A DNA stretch of 64,000 bases from a virus, in IMG/VR virus record IMGVR_UViG_3300010231_000003, positions 1 to 64,000 of that record. One strand, 5' to 3'. Positions 11,400-40,297 of this stretch are shown in pieces (within the stretch, counting starts at the first letter, position 1; each line of letters starts with the position of its first letter). Both the position numbers and the translations under genes were made by a program. The notes under the pieces were generated by a model, which ran no database searches, was not told the DNA's origin, and saw only the letters and a list, made by a program, of their open reading frames with translations.

Positions 11400-11556
11400 C
11401 TTTACGTATCACTGCTTATATATTATTCATATATAACATATGTTATATAACTACTATATAGAATATTTATAACCCTTCCTATTGACTTTCCCTTCAGGAA
11501 AGTCTTACGCTAGCGTACTACTATATATAAACCTCGCTCCCTGCGGTCGCTCGGTT

Positions 11557-12708: not shown

Positions 12709-13377
12709 ATGAAAAAGCTCATCGGATATACCCGCGTCTCCCACAAAGAACAGGGCAAGACGAAGAACGGTCTGGAAGCGCAAGCGGAGGCAATCCGCTT
12801 GTTCGCTCACTACAACGGGTACGAACTCGTTGAAATCGTTCAGGAAGTCCGTACGGGCGCTGACAATGAGCGTCCTGTACTGGCTGAAATCACGAAGCGT
12901 GCCGCAAAGATCGGTGCATACGTCGTCGTGAACAAGCTGGACCGTCTGTCCCGCGATGCCCTGTTCATACTCCAGTACGTCAAGACCAATCCCCGCTTCA
13001 TCGTCACGATGTTGGGCGAAGGCGTTGACCCGTTCATGCTTCACATCTACGCCGGTTTGGCGGAGAAAGAGCGGGCGATGATTTCTGAGCGTACCCGTGC
13101 AGCCCTTCAGGCTAAACGCGCACGTGGCGAAACGTTGGGGGCCAAGGAATCGGTTCGCGTGAAGGCTACCGCCGCATCGCACGTGTCGATGAAGGCGCAG
13201 TCTGACGCATTCGCGGATCGCGTCAAGCCGATGATCCAGCGTATGATCCTCGCCGGGATGTCTTACCGTGCGATGGCCTCTGAGCTAAATGCGCTGAACG
13301 TCAAAACGGCTCGTGGAGGCGAGTGGCATGCTATGACGGTGAGGAACATCGTGGAACGCTTTAAGGAGGTCGCATGA
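12709..13377 (+). CDS. small serine recombinase (resolvase/invertase family)
   Basis: N-terminal IGYTRVSHKEQ catalytic-serine motif, ..VVVNKLDRLSRD.., and a C-terminal HTH-like tail. 222 aa. Confidence 0.85.
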   Translation: MKKLIGYTRVSHKEQGKTKNGLEAQAEAIRLFAHYNGYELVEIVQEVRTGADNERPVLAEITKRAAKIGAYVVVNKLDRLSRDALFILQYVKTNPRFIVTMLGEGVDPFMLHIYAGLAEKERAMISERTRAALQAKRARGETLGAKESVRVKATAASHVSMKAQSDAFADRVKPMIQRMILAGMSYRAMASELNALNVKTARGGEWHAMTVRNIVERFKEVA

Positions 13378-13613
13378 AATTCGCTATAGTCGCTGCTGTT
13401 GTCGTCGCAATGGCATTCTGGATCGCCATGCAACACACGGGCATCCCGCGTGACTTGTTCAACGCTGCGGTGCTGCTAATGTTTTGCCCGGACACTAACC
13501 CGCTGAGCCCTAGCTGCGGCGAAGTCACGTTAGATTTCGTTCTGCGGAGGGTGTTCTGGACCGCTACGGCCGTTCTCGTGCTGGTGACGGTATGGAGGGC
13601 GCCGCGAGATTAA
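13374..13613 (+). CDS. small membrane protein
   Basis: 79 aa, hydrophobic, ATGA overlap with the recombinase stop. Confidence 0.6.
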   Translation: MKFAIVAAVVVAMAFWIAMQHTGIPRDLFNAAVLLMFCPDTNPLSPSCGEVTLDFVLRRVFWTATAVLVLVTVWRAPRD

Positions 13614-13681
13614 AAGCGCCGCAGGCGGGCCGCAAAAATTTTTTAACGCCGGGAGTCCCGGCATCAACCAAGGAGAAGAAA

Positions 13682-14215
13682 ATGACCAGCTATGAATACG
13701 ATCTGACCATCACCATGACCTCGGGCTTCGCGTTGGGGGCTCACGCAGGCCAGAAACGCAAATACACGGGCGAGGACTACTACCATCACCCGAAACGCGT
13801 CGCTGAAATCCTCAACCAGCACGGCCACAAAGACATCGTGACGCTTCAAGCGGCTCTGCTGCACGACACGGTGGAGGACACGCACGTCACGCACGAGCAA
13901 ATCGTTGAGTATTTCGGCAACGACGTGGCCGTCCTCGTGGGCTGGTTGACGAAAACGGAGTGGGATGCCCCGGCTCCGCCTCGTGCAGAACGCAAAGCCT
14001 TCGAAATCGCTCGCCTGAAGGACGCTCCGGTCGTCGTCAAGACGATCAAGCTGGCCGACCGCTACGACAATCTGCCGTCCGTGATCGAGCACGATCCGAA
14101 ATTCGCTCCCGTCATCGTTGCGGAGACGCGTGAGCTGCTGGACGGAGCCCTCGTCGGCGGTTGCCCGGTGCTGTGGGCGAAGCTGGACGCCATCGTGCGT
14201 GAATTTCAGCAATAA
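13682..14215 (+). CDS. HD-domain phosphohydrolase, SpoT/Mesh1-like (p)ppGpp hydrolase fold
   Basis: GAHAGQKRKYTGEDYYHHP..LHDTVEDT motif. Start at ATG 13682 after accaaggagaagaaa. Confidence 0.7.
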   Translation: MTSYEYDLTITMTSGFALGAHAGQKRKYTGEDYYHHPKRVAEILNQHGHKDIVTLQAALLHDTVEDTHVTHEQIVEYFGNDVAVLVGWLTKTEWDAPAPPRAERKAFEIARLKDAPVVVKTIKLADRYDNLPSVIEHDPKFAPVIVAETRELLDGALVGGCPVLWAKLDAIVREFQQ

Positions 14216-14220
14216 AAGGC

Positions 14221-14249
14221 TTGACGCAATACGTAAGTAGCGCTACAAT
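14221..14249 (+). promoter_or_regulatory. sigma70-type promoter
   Basis: TTGACG-caatacgtaagtagcgc(17)-TACAAT, followed by the CA-rich leader. Confidence 0.65.
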
Positions 14250-14278
14250 CCTCTCTACCAACTAACCAAGGAGAACAA

Positions 14279-14656
14279 ATGAACACAATGCAACAGGAAT
14301 TCGATGCAATCGTTTTGCATCTGTACGCACAGGGCAAACCCGCGATGGAACACGGCATTTGCGCTTATCGCGGTGTTGACGGGACCAAGTGTGCGGTCGG
14401 TGCACGTATCCCGGACTCCGTATACAGCCCTGACATGGAAGGCAAAAACATGAGCTGCCTGATGGAATGCTTCGGTGACGCGCTGCCGCCTGAATTTACC
14501 GCGTACGAACCCATGTACGCTGCCGTGCAAAATGTCCACGACTACTGGGATCATCAGGGGCACAGGTCCAACGGCGTAACGTGGAACGATTGGCTGGATG
14601 TCCGGCTGGAACAAGCCGCTAAGGAACTGAATCTGACCTTCACTAAACCGCAATAA
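14279..14656 (+). CDS. hypothetical protein
   Basis: 125 aa, leader accaactaaccaaggagaacaa. Confidence 0.7.
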   Translation: MNTMQQEFDAIVLHLYAQGKPAMEHGICAYRGVDGTKCAVGARIPDSVYSPDMEGKNMSCLMECFGDALPPEFTAYEPMYAAVQNVHDYWDHQGHRSNGVTWNDWLDVRLEQAAKELNLTFTKPQ

Positions 14657-14666
14657 GGAGAACAAA

Positions 14667-15875
14667 ATGCAAGAACGTACCACTGCGAAGCAAGTAATTT
14701 ACGAAGAAGGCTCCCGTCCGATCAAAATCTGGACGAATGACATCGAGCCGGAAGCGCTGACGCAGCTCAAGAACCTGTCCCGCCTGCCGTTCATCGCGAA
14801 AGAAGGCGTTGCCTGTATGCCGGATGTCCACGCAGGCATCGGAAGCACCGTTGGCACGGTGATTGCGACGGACAGGGCTGTCATCCCGGCCGCTGTCGGC
14901 GTCGATATCGGCTGTGGCATGGTCGCTACCCGTCTGTCGCTGAAGGCACACCAGTTGCCGGACTCGCTGGCACGCATCCGCAGCGAAATCGAACGTGTTG
15001 TACCGATGGGCACGGGCGGCGAGCACAAGGATGACCGCACCATCGCCTTCCGTGCAAGCCGTCTGAACGATTCCGCCCCGGATCAGGTTTCCCGTATCGT
15101 TGGCGATCACTACCTGAAGAAAGCGGCTGGACAGCTCGGCACGCTCGGCTCCGGCAACCACTTCATCGAAATTTGTATCGACCAGAACGACGACGTGTGG
15201 GTCATGCTGCACTCCGGCTCCCGTGGCATCGGCAACATGATCGGTAAGTACTACATCGAGAAGGGCAAGGAGCTGATGAACCAGTTCCACATTACCCTGC
15301 CGGATGGCGATCTGGCGTACCTGCCTGAAGGTACGGACCTGTTCGAAGACTACGTAGCTGCTGTCCAGTGGGCGCAGGACTACGCGATGGAGAACCGCAA
15401 GGCGATGCTGCAAGCCGTGCTGGATGTGCTCCGCAAGGAGATTCCGATCCAGTTCGGCATCACGGAAGAAGCAATCAACTGCCACCACAACTACGTTACG
15501 AAGGAGAACCACTTTGGAAAGAACCTCTGGATCACACGAAAGGGAGCCATCAAGGCCGGAAAAGACGACCTCGGAATCATCCCCGGAAGCATGGGCCAGC
15601 GTTCTTATATCGTGCGAGGGAAAGGAAACAAGGAATCGTATTGTTCGTGTTCTCACGGAGCGGGGCGTAAGATGTCTCGTTCCGCCGCCCGAAAGAAGTT
15701 CACCCTCGCTGACCTCGCCGCTCAGACCGCAGGAGTGGAATGCCGAAAGGACGACGCCGTACTGGATGAAATTCCGGGCTCGTACAAGGACATCGACGTG
15801 GTGATGGACAACCAGAAATCGCTCGTGGAAGTGGTTCACGTCCTGAAGCAAGTGATGTGCTGTAAAGGGGCGTAA
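14667..15875 (+). CDS. rtcB: RtcB RNA 3'-phosphate ligase
   Basis: 402 aa with GSGNHFIE, HSGSRGIG, CHHNY and a C-terminal ..HVLKQV.. region, matching the RtcB signature. Confidence 0.9.
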   Translation: MQERTTAKQVIYEEGSRPIKIWTNDIEPEALTQLKNLSRLPFIAKEGVACMPDVHAGIGSTVGTVIATDRAVIPAAVGVDIGCGMVATRLSLKAHQLPDSLARIRSEIERVVPMGTGGEHKDDRTIAFRASRLNDSAPDQVSRIVGDHYLKKAAGQLGTLGSGNHFIEICIDQNDDVWVMLHSGSRGIGNMIGKYYIEKGKELMNQFHITLPDGDLAYLPEGTDLFEDYVAAVQWAQDYAMENRKAMLQAVLDVLRKEIPIQFGITEEAINCHHNYVTKENHFGKNLWITRKGAIKAGKDDLGIIPGSMGQRSYIVRGKGNKESYCSCSHGAGRKMSRSAARKKFTLADLAAQTAGVECRKDDAVLDEIPGSYKDIDVVMDNQKSLVEVVHVLKQVMCCKGA

Positions 15876-17580: not shown

Positions 17581-18854
17581 ATCCGGACAGGATATACCGC
17601 ATAGCGCCGTTGGCGTCATATTATCTGCACGTAAGTGCTTGATTTTAAAAAATTTTTCCATACTCAGCCATTGGCTGCATACCCTTTCCGCCCGCCAGAA
17701 ATTTTATCAACGCTATTACCGAAACTTTTCTAGCATTTCTCCTATGAAACGTGTTAAAAAATTTTTCTAAAACAGGGCCATTTTCGACACGTTTTGGGAC
17801 ATGTTGGGAAACATCGTTTTAGCTCAAGAGCGGGAGGGTGGCTTAACCGCTCGCCGTGGCCTTGGGCATGGCCCGCTAAGGGCACAGAAATATCATAGGA
17901 GAGGCCGTCAGGGGATGGACAGGGCAAACCATGCCCAATGGGCCGGACGCCTCCTAGACCCCTTAAAACGCGTCTATGCCCCTGTGTATAAAATGCAGAC
18001 GGACGTTTGCCCCGTATACAGGGGCGTATGGATGAGGAATCGTATCCGTGCCAATGGCACAGGAATGCCCCTAGGGCTCGTGTATAGGGCCGCTATAGGG
18101 CGATTGGACGTGTGGACGTGGGGTACACAGGGGACGTACTGCAAACGCGTCCTAGCTCGTTTAAAGAGTTATGTGTTTGGCCTATGGCCTAATGCATATC
18201 TATGCTGTTTGATGGGGGCCAGTGGCCCGGATACGCAAGTTTCATGCCAAGAAAGAAGAGTTAGCAATGCTGGCGAGCTTAACCAGCCCGCCCGCCTGTG
18301 TCATTGGATACAGTTATGAGACGCTATAGTGCCATTGGCACGGCGTATATGTGCCCCTGTACCCCTGTTATTAACAATGTGTATGGACTGTATGTTGTGC
18401 CATTGGCACGTGAATAACTGACCCCATAGGGGCCATATGCTGTATGTGAATGATGTATGAGAACGTTATTATTTGACGTTATATAGTGCCAATGGCACGA
18501 CGTATGTACATGGGCCTATGGCCCGGACAGTACGTTAGCGGATTGGCCCGTAAGGGGGCCAATGGAGGAAAGGGCAGGAGATGGGCCAAAGGCCCGGTAG
18601 ATATGTGTTGTGCCTATGGCACTATAGTACGCTATATGCTTTGCAGCATAACACTGTTGTATGTACGTGCCACAGGAAGCGATTAGAGCCGTTTAAACGG
18701 TGCGGGGTATGCCAGCGTACCAACAAGGGGCCATTCGTTGAGCCTAGGCCCGTTCTGATGCGTCCTAGGGCCATTGGCCCATGTAGCACTACGTACAGGT
18801 ACGGCAGACAGGTGTATGTGAGTGGTCAAGTACAGATACGTGAGTAATCAAGTA

Positions 18855-20171: not shown

Positions 20172-20390
20172 TTACTGTAATGGACGGGACAACAAGATAT
20201 AGATGCCTGTCTGTGCATTCCAAAACGCGGGATACATGACGCCTTTGTATTTGAAATGGTCCATTCCCCTAAATGAATATGGCTTTTGCCGAATCGTTGC
20301 GATTGGCTTTTCGTATCCGGGCTCTTGTTCCTCATACGCATGTGTACGGAAAACCAAAACCGTATTAGGCGCTTTATATTTGCGGTCCAT
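20172..20390 (-). CDS. hypothetical protein
   Basis: 72 aa. Confidence 0.55.
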   Translation of the reverse strand: MDRKYKAPNTVLVFRTHAYEEQEPGYEKPIATIRQKPYSFRGMDHFKYKGVMYPAFWNAQTGIYILLSRPLQ

Positions 20391-21127: not shown

Positions 21128-21613
21128 TTAGTTGTTCCAGAAATAATGTCCGTCCGATTCGAAAAACGATTCGATCATTAATTCATGAGCGTAATGTTTC
21201 CAGTCGATGAAACTAAACATCGGGTGATTATCATCGATAAGGCCCGCTTCTATTGCATGTTCCATTGCGAAGTCTTCAGGCGAATTGTATTTCCCCCTGA
21301 AATTCTCTTGTGCATCTTTAAACTCGCATTCACCATTATTGGCGATATATGCGGCCCACATTTCACGGTCACTTTCACTTAATGCGGCAAGCTCGAAAAC
21401 CTTTTCATCAATCGATGATTCGGAAATCAAGTCTTTCGGAATGTCTTCCCAGTCTTGAAACATGAATTCCGGATCGTGTTCATTTTTATGCAATTCCTTA
21501 CATGCCTCGTAAAACTCGTCTTTATCGGCATAGTCTTCAATGTCCAGCCATGCACCGTAAAGATTGCCGCTATTGTATTTGCCGTACGTGCCGACATAAA
21601 CGCGCATAGTCAT
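21128..21613 (-). CDS. ardA: ArdA-like antirestriction protein
   Basis: N-terminus VYVGTYGKYNSGNLYGAWLDIEDYADKDEFYEACKELHKNEHDPEFMFQDWEDIP matches my recollection of the ArdA family. Acidic, 161 aa. Confidence 0.7.
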   Translation of the reverse strand: MTMRVYVGTYGKYNSGNLYGAWLDIEDYADKDEFYEACKELHKNEHDPEFMFQDWEDIPKDLISESSIDEKVFELAALSESDREMWAAYIANNGECEFKDAQENFRGKYNSPEDFAMEHAIEAGLIDDNHPMFSFIDWKHYAHELMIESFFESDGHYFWNN

Positions 21614-25640: not shown

Positions 25641-25844
25641 TTAGATAATGAATTCTTTATGGTTTTTCACGCCGAACAATTCCGCATATTCCATCAATGC
25701 GGCATGTTGCGCTTTGGTACGGCATGCACGAATCAACGCGGACAGTCCACGCGATACAGTGTCTTGCATGTCTCCGAGTTTGTAATAAATCGCGAGTTTT
25801 TGAATCTCTTTCAATTGCGATTTGTTCAAAGCTTCGAGTGCCAT
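25641..25844 (-). CDS. hypothetical protein, first gene of the leftward block
   Basis: 67 aa, RBS taggagattcaaaa. Confidence 0.6.
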   Translation of the reverse strand: MALEALNKSQLKEIQKLAIYYKLGDMQDTVSRGLSALIRACRTKAQHAALMEYAELFGVKNHKEFII

Positions 25845-26005
25845 TTTTGAATCTCCTAAGTGATAAATTCGGAACCGCTATTTCAAACGGTTCCTAGTTT
25901 TATCAACCTAGCTAGGGACGCATCCCGCGTGCCTAGTGTGTTGCGCTATCCTGTAGTCATCCCGACTAGAATTCTTACAGCGCCAATTGTGCGTTAGGCA
26001 TACCA

Positions 26006-26914
26006 TCCCGGCATTCCCTCCGCTTACGCTTCCCGGCATCTTGTGGCACGGGCTCGATAGTCGAGCGTCAATTGTATTTCGTAGGTTGTTAAAGAGCGAA
26101 CTTCCCGGCATCCTCATCCTTGCCTTGCCTGTGCTATCCATCTAGCGGCGTCCGCCACTTCGCACAGGGTAAGCGCCTATGGCTTTGCCCCGTCTCCTTA
26201 GTAGCGTTCTGTACTAAGGAGACTCCATTCTAATGACTCTTCAGGGTATGCGCAATACCCCGCGCAAAATAATTTGTAACAGAGATGCGACACGTGCCGG
26301 ATGCCCAAAAGGAGAAATGCGCCCGCGTGGCGTGCACATGCGTACGCGCACGCGTAGCAAGAACCGTGCCAAGGCCGATTTTCGCATACTGTGTTTTTAT
26401 ACAGTAAAACGCCGTAGAGCCGTTTTTCGGGGTAGGTTGATATGCCGGGATAGGTTGCTGTGGATAACTCAATGTACCCCCCTTAAAACGCGTTTAAACG
26501 GTATGCCATTGTGGATAACTTTTGCCCAAAATCATGCCTTTTCGTGGGCTCGCATGTAAATCGACCTGTTTATTTCTGTAAAATCTACATAAAAATCGCG
26601 TCACAATGGCCGAGTTATCCACAGGCGATTTTGTGTTTTCCCTTTAAAATCAACTACTTGAGTCTTATATAAGAGCACATTTCAGTCTTATATAAGATAT
26701 AGGACTACTCTTATATAAGAGTGCTACATGAGCAACATTTGTTTCTCTCGCTACATCATGGCACGGCGATTGCATAGGCAAGTAGTGTGCCAGCTAGCAC
26801 TACATACCAAACGGCCGGATAGATAGCGCTACGAAACGTTACAGGGTATGCCGGATACCATTCAACATTTGGGCACGGGCTGATACAGTGGGCAATCTGG
26901 CATCCATGCCGGGA
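26006..26914. repeat. TCCCGGCAT iteron-like 9-mers (three direct, two inverted, one degenerate)
   Basis: Perfect copies at 26006, 26031 and 26103 (direct) and at 26442 and 26906 (inverted). A one-mismatch copy lies at 26848. Confidence 0.7.
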
Positions 26915-27248
26915 CAGTAGGCGTTACTTATGGGCAAGTGTGCCCATTGGCCGACTATTGCCGAAAGGAAAAGTATTGCTAGGATGCTAACACTACCTAT
27001 GCCACGTGTTTTGCTATCGATTCCACGCTATCGATAGGATTCGTTGTTTGCTATGGGTTCTTACCAATCGATAGGCTATAGCGATTCCCTATCAGCCGGG
27101 ACCATATGATGGGCGTTTGGCTATCGATTGTGGATAACCTGTCACCGGAGCAACATTGTGGCCGAACGACCGTGCTTTTTGACAAGTTATCCACAGAACG
27201 GGCGTGCTTTTCCGTGGTTATCCACAGGTTATCCACATTTTGTCCACA
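26459..27248. other. putative replication origin: two DnaA-box clusters flanking AT-rich palindromes
   Basis: Perfect TTATCCACA/TGTGGATAA boxes at 26459, 26510, 26615, 27129, 27187, 27218 and 27229, plus TTGTCCACA at 27240. Three CTCTTATATAAGAG-type palindromes lie at 26661-26721, and there are four CTATCGAT repeats at 27013-27128. Confidence 0.7.
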
Positions 27249-27339
27249 AAAAGTACTTTTGAGCAACTTTTCTGCTGCGATGCACCATTTCGGGCAGTTC
27301 CGGGGCAGAGGACGGGGTTTCCTTTTTAAGAAGAGACTC

Positions 27340-27462
27340 AAAAATTCCCCAGTCCCTGTGGAAAATCTGACTTTTGAAATCCAGATCGAATTCCGAAAAT
27401 CTTTCCCAAATGAAAACGCCCCAGCACAGGCCGGGGCGAAATTTTTGCGGAAATTTTTACGG
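27340..27462. repeat. copy A of the duplicated regulatory segment
   Basis: aaaaattccccagtccctgtggaaaatctgacttttgaaatccagatcgaattccgaaaatct.. aligns with 30007-30131. The match is strong over about 65 bp and weaker beyond. Confidence 0.7.
27412..27446. terminator. bidirectional terminator
   Basis: CGCCCC-agcacagg-CCGGGGCG flanked by an A run and a T run. Follows the stop of the 27472 gene on the minus strand. Confidence 0.6.
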
Positions 27463-27471
27463 CGGGGGCCG

Positions 27472-29333: not shown

Positions 29334-30006
29334 GGTGTAACTCCTATAAGGGTTGAGGTTTAGTGTCCGTTTGCTACGAGTGCTGCAAGGACAGTTCGAA
29401 GATTACACCGTTCTGTATGGAATTCAAGGGGGTAAATCAATCGTGTGGGCTCTTTTTGATAAAAATTTGATAACGATGTTGTGACGATACAACGGAACAC
29501 AAAATAAAGTTTGATGTCATTGCCATGTAACACTTCCTTCGACCTACGTGTCCTACGTCACGTAGTCTCGGTCCTACAAATCAACGAGTTACGTACGAAG
29601 GTAGGTAGCACTACTTACATATCGATATGACAGGAGCATTACATATTTACTATCTTTGTTACGTAAATATGGACAGACGTACAGGAGTTTCAATCGTGCG
29701 TCATGACGTGCGCCCAAAATTCGTGTAAAGTGAGAAGTGGGTAGAAGATTACCTGTTCCCAGAAACACGGATTTTCTGCTTAAAAGTTGTTCAAAAAGCT
29801 AGGAAATGTAAGGTTTCCTAGCTGCTGCATTGTCTAAACGGAGGAAAGTTAGCGGATACGTAGTGAAAAGACAACATTGCTTATAACATTTCTTATGAGA
29901 AACATCATAGGGAAGGGAGTTGCTTTACCTAAAGATTTGATGTAGGTAAGCAACATAGTAAGGTGTTTTGTACCTAGGTAGAGCTATCTATATATAAGAA
30001 AGAAGT

Positions 30007-30131
30007 AAAAATTTCCCCATCCCCTGTAGAAATTCTGACTTTTGATTTCCAAATCGATTTCCGAAAATCTACTGGGAACGAAAATAAGTAGCACTACCTG
30101 CTTGACACCGCAAAAAATTTACGGAATAATG
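30007..30131. repeat. copy B of the duplicated regulatory segment
   Basis: aaaaatttccccatcccctgtagaaattctgacttttgatttccaaatcgatttccgaaaatct.. Includes the promoter at 30102. Confidence 0.7.
30102..30130 (+). promoter_or_regulatory. sigma70-type promoter of the rightward replication operon
   Basis: TTGACA-N17-AATAAT, followed by leader caccaaccaaccaaggagagaac. Confidence 0.6.
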
Positions 30132-39040: not shown

Positions 39041-40297
39041 ATGAGCAAAGCAACCGCAGCAATCACCAGTAAATTCAAGTGCTCGTTCATCCGCGTGGCG
39101 AACGTGTCTGAATCCGTAGCCGTACAGAAGATGATGCACAAGCTGGGATTCGGCGTGTACCCGTTCCGTTCGCGGACGGTGGACAACAACGACAACATCC
39201 GGTTCATCTACGTGAACATCCATTGCGATATGTTCCTCTACGAGAAGCACTGCGCCGGTAATACGTGGCGGGAAACCAACTTCGAAGAACTGTCGAAGGC
39301 AGTGCAGGAAGTCGTGACCATCAAACGCCGCGAGCACAAGGAGACGAAGAAGCGCCGTGCTCTACGTAAGTGGGATGAGACGGCTACCAAGCGTACCACT
39401 GAAAACTGCCCGGTTCGTCGTGACGTTATCATCGCTGCTAAGCTGAACAGCGGCGAGGTCATCACTGAGCGTGCTGACTGGTTCGACTGGACTACCGGCA
39501 CCGCGTACACCGGGCAAGACATCGCGAGCTACAAGGTTCTGACTCCGAACAAGCACAAACCCAAGCGCGTCGAAGGTGAGTGGATTGAGTGGAAGGGCGG
39601 TCAGTGTCCGATTCGCCCTGAAGACTACGTTCAGATCAAGTTCCGCTTCGATAATACCAATACTCCGGCGAACCAGAACGCAAACAAGTGCTGGTGGAGT
39701 CATACTGGCGGCGCCGGCGACATCGTAGCATACCGTATCCAACCGGAAAGTGAGCGTCTACCGAAGATCGTCACGCAGGAACAGATGGTGGATGCACTGG
39801 CTGACAGCATCGGCAAGCCGCTGGCAATCCCGGTCCTTGGCGAGTGCCAAGTTCTGGCCCCGGCAGGCGATCCGATCCCCGACACGAACCCGAAGAAGCA
39901 GTACGGTGTGTCGTCGGTTCCGCTGAACATGTGGAGCCCGCTGGCATCGGCGTATGGTTCGCTCGCTCTGTACAACGGTTCGCTGAAGTACGGCAAGGCG
40001 AATTTTGCGAACACGAAGGTGGAAGCGTCGATCTACATCGCTGCTGCAATGCGTCACTTGCTGGCGTGGGCATGCGGACAGGAAGACGATCCGGCTGATG
40101 GCGTTCCGAACCTCGGCGGCGTACTGGCGAACGTGGCGATTTTGCTGGAAGCCCGTGCTGCTGGCATGCTGATCGATGATCGCCTCCGTATGGCTGGCTA
40201 CCTGAGCGAGCTGGAGATGCTGAAGGGCAAGGTGAAAGCCCTCAACGAACTGCACGCCGGGAAGAACCCGAAGCATTACACGCTGGATCAGGAATGA
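39041..40297 (+). CDS. hypothetical protein with a C-terminal all-alpha NTP pyrophosphohydrolase-like (DUF5664/MazZ-like) domain
   Basis: C-terminus KKQYGVSSVPL..LKYGKANF..AAAMRHLLAW..DPADGVPNLGGVLANVAILLEA fits my recollection of the dATP/dGTP diphosphohydrolase-type domain. The N-terminal 270 aa are unknown. Confidence 0.5.
   Translation: MSKATAAITSKFKCSFIRVANVSESVAVQKMMHKLGFGVYPFRSRTVDNNDNIRFIYVNIHCDMFLYEKHCAGNTWRETNFEELSKAVQEVVTIKRREHKETKKRRALRKWDETATKRTTENCPVRRDVIIAAKLNSGEVITERADWFDWTTGTAYTGQDIASYKVLTPNKHKPKRVEGEWIEWKGGQCPIRPEDYVQIKFRFDNTNTPANQNANKCWWSHTGGAGDIVAYRIQPESERLPKIVTQEQMVDALADSIGKPLAIPVLGECQVLAPAGDPIPDTNPKKQYGVSSVPLNMWSPLASAYGSLALYNGSLKYGKANFANTKVEASIYIAAAMRHLLAWACGQEDDPADGVPNLGGVLANVAILLEARAAGMLIDDRLRMAGYLSELEMLKGKVKALNELHAGKNPKHYTLDQE

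Follow-up and report, generated by a model that had tools for sequence, protein, structure and literature searches.

An untranslated spacer in an uncultured tailed phage as a putative docking platform for host DnaA, IHF, and the metabolic regulator SdhR

The stretch of phage DNA analyzed here (the window: 64,000 nucleotides, positions 1 to 64,000 of IMG/VR virus record IMGVR_UViG_3300010231_000003) contains a 1.57-kb untranslated gap between a leftward early operon of small genes and the leftward unit o285-o54-o145. The gap includes a spacer, 26290-27416, that looks like a docking platform for three host proteins: DnaA (nine boxes), IHF (one site), and SdhR, a regulator of tricarboxylic acid (TCA) cycle genes (three operator cores). 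We tentatively read this spacer as a DnaA- and IHF-dependent replication origin, or a region that controls initiation, whose opening site is gated by host SdhR. Recruitment of host DnaA is well founded, because the boxes are beyond chance, unique, and conserved, and lie beside an IHF site and an unstable duplex. From the sequence we infer the protein binding, the opening of the DNA and the start of replication at this place, the gating by SdhR, and the assignment of the spacer as the origin. An earlier, model-generated note on the same DNA had proposed an oriC-like region through which the phage may recruit host DnaA for its own initiation; the recruitment stands, and an origin is a reasonable proposal.

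How might such a platform act? Host DnaA would fill the high-affinity boxes, IHF would then bend the DNA, and DnaA oligomers, with the CACA ends of the boxes directed towards the operator array, would open the least stable segment, where the phage gp4-type primase-helicase and PolA replisome would enter. Because the opening site is composed of SdhR operator cores, SdhR occupancy would block or time its opening, and phage initiation would be coupled to the central-carbon state of the host.

The motifs listed in the earlier note all lie where it had placed them (Table 1), and its judgment that seven perfect DnaA boxes exceed chance holds: the window has eight matches to TTATCCACA, the eighth at 478, against 0.28 expected, and none of 100 shuffles reached eight. 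All seven perfect boxes of the gap carry a 5' G. Two near-perfect boxes, TTGTCCACA at 27240 and TTTTCCACA at 27357 on the minus strand, bring the total to nine in about 900 bp, arranged in two clusters (A and B), and the boxes at 27218, 27229, and 27240 stand in an 11-bp tandem register with 2-bp gaps. Relatives keep the four direct boxes of 27187-27248 as TTrTCCACA. The whole-genome scan that the earlier note had called for found no second cluster in the 81.4 kb read of the ~90.5-kb genome. Plain box arrays are common: of 120 listed IMG/VR loci containing two boxes in tandem, 58 reach at least four perfect boxes per kb. The IMG/VR contigs L048, L071, L008, L097, and L093 hold arrays of six to nine perfect DnaA boxes in one orientation; in several of them, which are podovirus-like, the terminase genes lie on one side of the array and the early/primase-helicase genes on the other. 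Elsewhere in the window, within the open reading frame (ORF) 17801-18319, TTAAAACGCGT is followed 20 nt on by a one-mismatch box (TTATACACA, minus strand), the pair spanning 17963-17991; this faint echo of the spacer's ACGCGT block (d) and box is probably due to chance.

With the nearby ligase as query, 15 related loci, from genomes of 83-92 kb, were found in IMG/VR; the small proteins that flank the gap, used as IMG/VR queries, gave no matches. Each of the eight relatives with at least 66% ligase identity has three to six perfect boxes in the syntenic gap, in the order o67 / gap / o145 / o54 / o285, so that the boxes, whose conservation the earlier note had left to be checked, are positionally conserved in all eight. 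In alignments the gap is a patchwork of conserved blocks, although the flanking proteins are only 40-80% identical. The left part of the shared architecture consists of cluster A (three or four boxes around an invariant CCTTAAAACGCGTTTAAAYGG), an AT-rich inverted repeat, and the IHF core; on the right follow one to four copies of TCTTATATAAGA, a spacer of ~400 bp, cluster B, a block of ~90 nt (block (i)), and a terminator. Cluster B is constant in having one invariant inverted box that faces two to four direct boxes, the last of them in 11-bp register.

The AT-rich palindromes between the clusters had been proposed as an unwinding element. Their duplex is indeed very unstable, but they are more than an unwinding element: by sequence, they correspond to the operator core of SdhR, which belongs to the GntR/HutC type and regulates TCA and glyoxylate genes in Burkholderiales-like bacteria. 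The three copies of TCTTATATAAGA are the sole copies in the window, even when one mismatch is allowed, and the only literature match for this palindrome is the motif TCTTATGTCTTATATAAGACATAAGA, assigned to the HutC-subfamily regulator SdhR in a survey of GntR-family motifs. The symmetric 20-nt operator core is present in at least 120 metagenome contigs, many of them 0.3-1.1 Mb long, and 69 of the 120 listed copies lie no more than 2.5 kb from malate dehydrogenase, a GntR+UTRA regulator, or SdhA. The bacterial arrangement at the operator is mdh <> regulator-sdhCDA, with the operator in promoter regions, for example 10-12 nt from TTGACA at mdh. Isocitrate lyase (PF00463, E = 5e-115) is preceded by one or two operators in tandem beside an IHF site, AAATCAACAACTT, and window positions 26648-26720 repeat this layout of an IHF site and then tandem operators. 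On the bacterial contigs L366, L370, L338, L356, L387, and L406, the operator (often as two tandem copies 30 bp apart) and the IHF site lie upstream of isocitrate lyase, near thrS; such a layout suggests that the glyoxylate shunt is within the SdhR regulon, with IHF taking part. Among the matches listed, DnaA boxes are near only 1 of 120 bacterial-type operator copies. A search of 1.58 Mb of phage DNA, which took in the whole genomes of Limnohabitans phage DC31 and Curvibacter phage P26059A, found no SdhR homolog, and thus the operator is carried without its regulator. Most phage copies comprise only the 12-14-bp core of the 26-bp operator; the extended left arm is retained in the relatives L126 and L129 and in the IMG/VR contigs L020, L177, and L197. 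SdhR may bind the phage cores, and in uncultured phages the presence of this operator points to Burkholderiales-type hosts.

In seven of eight phages the IHF core keeps one position, immediately 5' of the palindromes. It is nearly the same as both the IHF site of Escherichia coli oriC, AGATCAACAACCTGG, and the IHF site by the SdhR operators upstream of isocitrate lyase, and IHF is predicted to bind at 26648. Only one 60-mer in the 64 kb is less stable than the palindrome array, which is also the least stable duplex of its region, and the segment formed by IHF site and palindromes has a duplex-instability rank of 0-5 per 11-21-kb locus in the same seven phages. Inspection by eye recognized no 13-mer repeats or DnaA-trio pattern at the unstable segment.

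The same association recurs in phages that have little else in common with the window. DC31 (76 kb, 37.6% GC) has all five of its perfect boxes at 20233-20350, converging on its sole TCTTATATAAGA (20271), in an unannotated 930-bp gap that also holds further TTATATAAG palindromes and then a 20-bp tandem array (4.6 copies). P26059A (84 kb) has its sole palindrome (72356) flanked by converging boxes in a 657-bp gap. Taking the two phages together, all or nearly all boxes of the genome point at the one palindrome. The papers on the two phages make no mention of DnaA or an origin. Between the window and these two genomes, only portal, terminase, primase-helicase (42-48%), exonuclease, and RNA ligase are recognizable, and neither of them shares a small protein next to the gap with the window, which favors host proteins as the readers of the module. 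The pattern TCTTATATAAGA-N4-14-TGTGGATAA is found in at least 120 IMG/VR contigs, compared with ~0.5 expected by chance on a rough estimate. From 107 unique sequences, the composite consensus is an outer box, ~12 nt, an inner box, N7-9, and TCTTATATAAGA, then the mirror image, with all CACA ends inward. The carriers, of 32-57% GC, include ~78-84-kb genomes and ~37-40-kb podovirus-like genomes and represent at least three genome types; in the podovirus-like carriers the terminase operon lies on one side of the module, with the primase-helicase and early genes on the other. An 80-nt DC31 core composite matched only DC31 and P26059A among GenBank phages and no plasmid in PLSDB, and the 1.5-kb gap of the window had no DNA match among GenBank phages. 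No published description of the combination of DnaA boxes with an SdhR operator was found in the literature searched. In the GenBank record of DC31 (L169), positions 1-2972 have no annotated gene but by eye look coding-like, repetitive, and of fiber-like composition, and the annotation of the first ~3 kb is probably incomplete.

What kind of complex would form on the spacer? The ~400 bp nearest to the operators hold no conserved sigma70 promoter, which makes ordinary transcriptional operators unlikely: the start of the early promoter P_E, the sole positionally conserved promoter of the clade, is 440-500 bp from the operators and at least 240 bp from the nearest box. The lack of a nearby promoter, the convergent boxes on more than 100 contigs, the IHF site, and the duplex instability together favor a nucleoprotein complex with the DNA itself as its target.

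Several observations weigh against an SdhR-gated origin or initiation-control region. The orientation of the cluster A boxes differs between two subgroups of relatives, and the window clade has a box, 24 nt, the IHF site, and the palindromes in place of a tight box-N8-palindrome. The relative L131 (59% ligase identity) is without boxes, palindromes, and ACGCGT block, a gene fills its syntenic gap, and the module was not found in the examined flanks of L131-L136. The absence from L131, which retains a promoter-type motif and both copies of block (i), means that the module is not indispensable to this type of phage and is cassette-like. GATC is depleted at the locus, with one site against ~6 expected and no cluster. 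The cumulative GC-skew minimum of the window, at 26757, had seemed to support an origin, and we have withdrawn it as evidence: this outcome of the skew check that the earlier note had recommended is not reproduced in relatives, where the minimum is 0-2.5 kb off the module, or in the two complete cultured genomes. The skew of DC31 is negative on both sides of its module, with no turn there and the global minimum at a strand switch, and the P26059A module is at a local maximum of cumulative skew. GC skew follows transcription in these phages, which makes it a weak test of an origin. Searches of neighboring ORFs with Pfam and PHROGs found no Rep/initiator, DnaD, or O-like family, which agrees with the earlier note that no Rep gene is adjacent. 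The phage encodes its own helicase, and we know of no link between DnaA and a gp4-type helicase. The DnaA-box region of T5, the sole described precedent in a lytic phage, is not an origin (bioRxiv 10.1101/866236).

A transcription switch that responds to the state of the host is possible, although on balance unlikely. DnaA, IHF, and SdhR assembled upstream of the early operon would then control transcription and not replication, acting on P_E at a distance or on an unmapped promoter or non-coding transcript that runs rightwards to the bidirectional terminator, and early development would take place only in energized, growing hosts. An IHF site with tandem SdhR operators does resemble the control region upstream of the host isocitrate lyase gene (aceA), bacterial operators occupy promoter regions as described above, and the module always comes after a terminator and upstream of early genes (in the window, DC31, and podovirus-like contigs). 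The position of the ACGCGT block in unrelated phages, 13-30 nt upstream of a Shine-Dalgarno (SD) sequence and ATG, would also suit a switch. However, in the window clade neither operators nor boxes have a positionally conserved sigma70-type promoter nearby, inspection of the palindrome reveals only poor -10 candidates, and symmetric convergence of boxes on a palindrome is not a known promoter architecture.

It is quite improbable that the region is a replicating decoy with no role in cis. Amplifying phage genomes would in this case drain DnaA and SdhR from the chromosome, so that re-initiation at the host oriC is blocked and DnaA-controlled genes, together with mdh, sdh, and isocitrate lyase, are derepressed to feed phage production. 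In E. coli, extra box clusters such as datA titrate DnaA, and titration of DnaA was the alternative reading of the earlier note. On bacterial chromosomes, TCA and glyoxylate genes do carry this operator; in the phages it is present without a regulator gene and without an adjacent conserved promoter, and each genome of the window clade offers one to four operator cores and three to seven perfect boxes. Yet a sink needs no fixed spacing or orientation, and the fixed geometry of the 107 unique contigs, with N7-9 and inward CACA ends, speaks against a pure sink. Only one operator core is present in each of DC31 and P26059A, and maximal affinity would not select the truncated operator that most phage copies hold.

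An element that acts at DNA entry, like the T5 injection stop signal (iss), is very unlikely. Situated near the leading genome end, it would anchor or pause incoming DNA, for example on membrane-bound DnaA, as was proposed for T5 in a study in which the proposal was left untested (Davison, bioRxiv 10.1101/866236). T5-like phages, which are virulent and tRNA-rich, have a large untranslated region with repeats, palindromes, and about eight DnaA boxes that is better conserved than coding regions and is not an origin. The window region likewise borders early genes including ArdA, and the podovirus-like box arrays lie between terminase and early genes, where T7-type ends lie. The T5 boxes, however, form pairs 3 bp apart within the IRC/IRD inverted repeats, which belong to the terminal repeat and lie downstream of the pre-early genes. 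Those in the window stand singly or in 11-bp tandem register on the upstream side of the early promoter and are joined by IHF and SdhR sites that an entry element would leave unexplained; no box pairs of the T5 kind and no long inverted repeats resembling IRC/IRD were found, and T5 has no sequence or gene-content relation to the window phage. The contig closes as a circle, which does not place the physical ends, and by analogy with PseuGes_254 they would be at the far end of the small-gene block. The "origin" of PseuGes_254 was itself considered as a homolog and rejected, as it has AT repeats only and no box within one mismatch of the consensus. Inert captured host DNA, or a chance build-up of motifs, is effectively refuted by conservation: operator and IHF parts do resemble host regulatory DNA, but no shuffle reached the box count, the position is conserved over phages of very different GC content with mostly unrecognizably diverged proteins, and a bacterial operator is so rarely flanked by boxes among the matches listed.

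The proposed DnaA/IHF-dependent origin or initiation-control region, gated by SdhR, can be compared with several known systems. Like E. coli oriC, the phage region has the extended box GTTATCCACAG, as in R1 and R4, a nearly identical IHF core (AAATCAACAACTTG in L123/L122 and AAATCAACTACTTG in the window versus AGATCAACAACCTG in E. coli), a nearest box whose CACA/TGTGG end is turned towards the least stable segment as R1 is towards the 13-mers, closely phased (11-bp) direct boxes, and the heptamer CTCTTAT, common to the R 13-mer and the phage palindrome. Unlike oriC, it has no GATC cluster or 13-mer repeats, its IHF site is between box and unstable segment, the unstable segment is a transcription-factor operator, and the two clusters are 500 bp apart; it belongs to a lytic phage with its own primase-helicase and polymerase and lacks support from skew. 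Iteron-type theta origins with DnaA boxes include P1 oriR, pSC101, and RK2 oriV. Boxes beside an AT-rich segment and repeated short sites are common to these and the phage region, and DC31 has a true 20-bp tandem array, but the phage has no adjacent Rep or initiator gene, and the supposed iteron of the window is an RNA-hairpin sequence. The claim that the layout copies chromosomal and plasmid theta origins was thus overstated, for DNA iterons, a Rep gene, and a GATC cluster are all missing. The E. coli elements datA and DARS are non-origin box/IHF elements that act on DnaA by titration or by switching its nucleotide state, and oppositely oriented boxes are essential in DARS. They too combine a few strong DnaA boxes with an IHF site, but have no sequence relation to the phage module, in which the boxes converge on a 12-bp palindrome instead of abutting.

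The proposed gating is reminiscent of chromosomal origins that are controlled by regulators: CtrA at Caulobacter Cori, Spo0A at Bacillus subtilis oriC, ArcA at E. coli oriC, MtrA, AdpA, and HP1021. In these, the operator of the regulator overlaps or abuts a box or the unwinding region, and physiology vetoes initiation; by analogy, SdhR may do the same here. They differ in being chromosomal and in using response regulators, whereas here phage DNA would read a metabolite-sensing GntR/HutC-type TCA repressor of the host. The host SdhR regions themselves (mdh<>sdhR-sdhCDA and upstream of isocitrate lyase) have the identical 12-14-bp core, tandem operators, and an adjacent IHF site of the same sequence type, and some phage copies keep the arm GTCTTATGTCTTATATAAGAC. 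However, bacterial operators are in the promoters of the regulon, and the phage operator is flanked by converging boxes, with no regulon gene, regulator gene, or conserved promoter.

Discussion of DnaA-box clusters in virulent phages has been confined almost entirely to T5, and for most large lytic phages no origin is known. Here an organized DnaA-box element is widespread in uncultured freshwater phages (the at least 120 IMG/VR contigs above) and is fused to a host central-carbon operator. If SdhR binds, a lytic phage would couple replication or early development to the TCA and glyoxylate status of its host through cis-acting DNA alone or, alternatively, would titrate a host metabolic repressor. 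The module would in either case be a gene-free means for lytic phages to read or rewire host physiology via SdhR and DnaA; the decoy version, which we consider improbable, would amount to auxiliary metabolic reprogramming without an auxiliary metabolic gene. Because two carriers, DC31 and P26059A, have been cultured with their hosts, Limnohabitans sp. DCL3 and Curvibacter sp. IMCC26059, both initiation and the sensing of metabolism are directly testable.

The left third of the gap has a different function. The earlier note had treated 25990-27250 as a single non-coding stretch with a 9-mer iteron; it is untranslated, but 25990-26282 is leader and promoter and not origin. A position weight matrix (PWM) scan finds a sigma70-type promoter, P_E, at one aligned position in eight of eight phages, with -10 variants TAGAAT, CATAAT, TATAAT, TATTCT, TATTAT, and TAATAT and a predicted start at ~26220. 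The A/T block at 26266-26282 is UP-element-like and may act as an UP element. Downstream, hairpins of the leader include those at 25912-25936 and 25871-25894, the latter just before the SD sequence and ATG at 25844 (the o67 start). The minus-strand leader RNA has a folding energy of -163.9 kcal/mol (z = -4.5), and the minus strand folds 6-19 kcal/mol better than the plus strand in eight of eight phages. In the leader sub-block tested, 13 of 24 predicted pairs still pair through changes on both sides. GGA occurs in short-hairpin loops on the minus strand 1-4 times per phage (8 phages) against 0.2-0.7 in shuffles.

The supposed iteron, TCCCGGCAT, is present in five copies in the region and six in the window (0.47 expected), and its direct copies (26006, 26031, and 26103) form the loop and 3' stem of GGGA(U) hairpins. 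An exact TCCCGGCAT is missing from the syntenic gap of every relative. The relatives hold the loop (TCCC; GGGA on the minus strand) while the stems vary, as in ACGAC-GGGAU-GUCGU, ACGCC-GGGA-GGCGU, and AUGUC-GGGA-GACAU. With loops kept and stems changed, the direct copies are elements of an early-mRNA leader and not DNA iterons; as DNA sites these copies are not conserved, and they sit in covarying hairpins downstream of a conserved promoter. The systematic evolution of ligands by exponential enrichment (SELEX) consensus of CsrA is RUACARGGAUGU, and GGGA is also a GNRA tetraloop. The flanks of the GGGA(U) loops resemble this consensus, and the hairpins may be CsrA/RsmA-type sites, in a regulator-binding leader or a sponge, or structural loops of GNRA type. 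A further "hairpin", GGGTATGCGCAATACCC, initially taken for an RNA structure, was reassigned as the -35 region of P_E.

Table 1. Positions of sequence features in and at the borders of the gap, in window coordinates
Feature	Positions	Strand	Remarks
Leader (~375 nt) of leftward early operon (o67 ... ArdA)	25845-26220	-	Array of covarying hairpins
12-bp perfect stem-loop	26192-26223	-	Covarying stem, conserved loop GCGTTsTG; at predicted 5' end of early transcript
Early promoter P_E	26227-26255	-	-35 TTGCGC (26255-26250), 17-nt spacer, -10 TAGAAT (26232-26227)
A/T block AAAATAATTTGTAACAG	26266-26282	-	Conserved, just 5' of -35; AAAATAATTTGT also in DC31 gap
Block CGCGCACGCGTAGCAAG..GTGCCA	26345-26371		Mean identity 0.79 over 26345-26364 (20 nt, 7 relatives); similar block in DC31 gap
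DnaA box TTATCCACA, cluster A	26459-26467	-	Perfect
ACGCGT block (d) CCTTAAAACGCGTTTAAACGGTAT	26481-26504	+	Most conserved gap element; imperfect palindrome around ACGCGT; fits TTAA-N7-TTAA
DnaA box TTATCCACA, cluster A	26510-26518	-	Perfect; directly after ACGCGT block
AT-rich inverted repeat ATGTAAAT..N21..ATCTACAT	26554-26590		Arms conserved in relatives
DnaA box TTATCCACA	26615-26623	+	Perfect; CACA end towards IHF site and palindromes
IHF core AATCAACTACTTG (WATCAANNNNTTR)	26648-26660	+	A-tract upstream; one of 7 core matches in window
Three TCTTATATAAGA copies	26663-26720 (26663, 26686, 26709)		23-bp spacing; perfect 12-bp operator cores
GAGCAACATT (GAGCAACWTT), copy 1	26730-26739	+	Further copies at 27148 and 27261; conserved in relatives
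CTATCGAT / ATCGATAG repeats (27014, 27028, 27030-, 27067-, 27121)	27014-27128		Within 37-bp direct repeats
DnaA box TTATCCACA, start of cluster B	27129-27137	-	Perfect; invariant in all relatives (TGTGGATAAC.TG)
Four direct DnaA boxes	27187-27248	+	27187, 27218, and 27229 perfect (TTATCCACA); 27240 is TTGTCCACA
Block (i), ~90 nt (TAAGAAGAG..AAAATTCCCCAG..)	27327-27415	+	RAWTTCC repeats; at right edge of gap
Intrinsic terminator	27417-27438	-	9-bp stem (8 GC pairs) then TTTTCATTT; conserved in alignment of relatives

Among the other conserved blocks of the spacer, the 24-nt ACGCGT block (CCTTAAAACGCGTTTAAAYGGCAT) has the widest distribution. Twenty-two unrelated IMG/VR contigs hold an exact 21-mer of it, once each and with no DnaA boxes, and outside the clade the block is near the replication modules of at least eight unrelated phage groups. 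Its contexts there (L138-L164) are upstream of a gp4-type primase-helicase, in a divergent region between single-stranded DNA-binding protein and replication genes, or inside an initiator-like ORF. In bacteria, the 21-mer was found on only two contigs of metagenome-assembled genomes among 185,579 GTDB species genomes. A multicopy promoter for a phage RNA polymerase was rejected, because there is one copy per locus and no RNA polymerase gene was seen, and so was a mobile cassette of a site with its binding protein, because the carrier groups have no common small protein. The fit to TTAA-N7-TTAA does not support a CtrA box or an alphaproteobacterial host: the window has one match against 0.64 expected, the N7 spacer, which could vary in a CtrA box, is invariant too, and the host indications are towards Betaproteobacteria.

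A weak leftward promoter-like match, TTTACA-18-CATGAT, is at 26560-26531. Examination by eye and by PWM found no convincing or conserved sigma70 or sigma54 promoter in the ACGCGT block, block (i), or the palindrome. All three GAGCAACWTT matches of the window are in the gap (0.28 expected), on the plus strand and 10-13 nt to the right of a palindrome or box cluster. For CTATCGAT, five of the eight window matches are in 27014-27128 (1.66 expected for the window); these repeats are only loosely conserved in relatives and are possible sites for a phage-specific factor, and the 20-bp tandem array of DC31 occupies the corresponding place there. A second copy of block (i), at 29994-30085, closely precedes TTGACA-17-AATAAT (30102-30130), the strong promoter from which the replication operon is read rightwards. 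The terminator, read from 27438 to 27417 on the minus strand, closes the o285-o54-o145 unit (29333->27472) and forms the right border of the spacer, which, to judge from the positions of P_E and terminator, is probably untranscribed. The Joint Genome Institute (JGI) gene caller leaves 25845-27471 empty, only short overlapping ORFs are present, and no known RNA families were found in the gap.

The window comes from a metagenome contig of 90,576 bp (JGI 3300010384, Ga0136217_1000101) in which a 99-nt overlap closes a circle of ~90.5 kb. The phage is a virulent-type tailed phage with ~21 tRNA genes, and it encodes a Mu-like portal, a T4-type large terminase, two ligases, a family A polymerase, a T7 gp4-type primase-helicase, and a UvrD-type helicase. 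No relative at the DNA level was found among 50,697 GenBank phages. The nearest polymerases (~50%) are those of Aeromonas phages and the Pseudomonas PAK_P3/KPP10 group, and the nearest capsid proteins those of DC31 (52%) and P26059A (47%), both of which infect freshwater Comamonadaceae. An ArdA-type anti-restriction gene (PF07275, E = 1e-24) at 21128-21613 on the minus strand lies in the leftward small-gene block under P_E, which is consistent with this block being the early, first-expressed region.

Three other places in the window deserve mention. The ORF 39041-40297 has an N-terminal dATP/dGTP diphosphohydrolase domain (MazZ/DatZ-like, PF18909), which hints at manipulation of the purine deoxynucleoside triphosphate pool or at a modified base. 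On the plus strand, opposite to the strand of its neighbors, a possibly mobile island of higher GC (0.56-0.58) at 12709-15875 carries genes for a serine recombinase/resolvase, an RtcB tRNA ligase, and an HD-domain protein; RtcB together with the RNA ligase and the ~21 tRNAs suggests a tRNA-repair theme. The least stable 60-mer of the whole window, at 11412-11471 (GC 0.15, TATATA-rich, and palindromic), is in the intergenic stretch 11.0-12.1 kb that adjoins the tRNA cluster and is a second candidate for a regulatory or origin-like spot.

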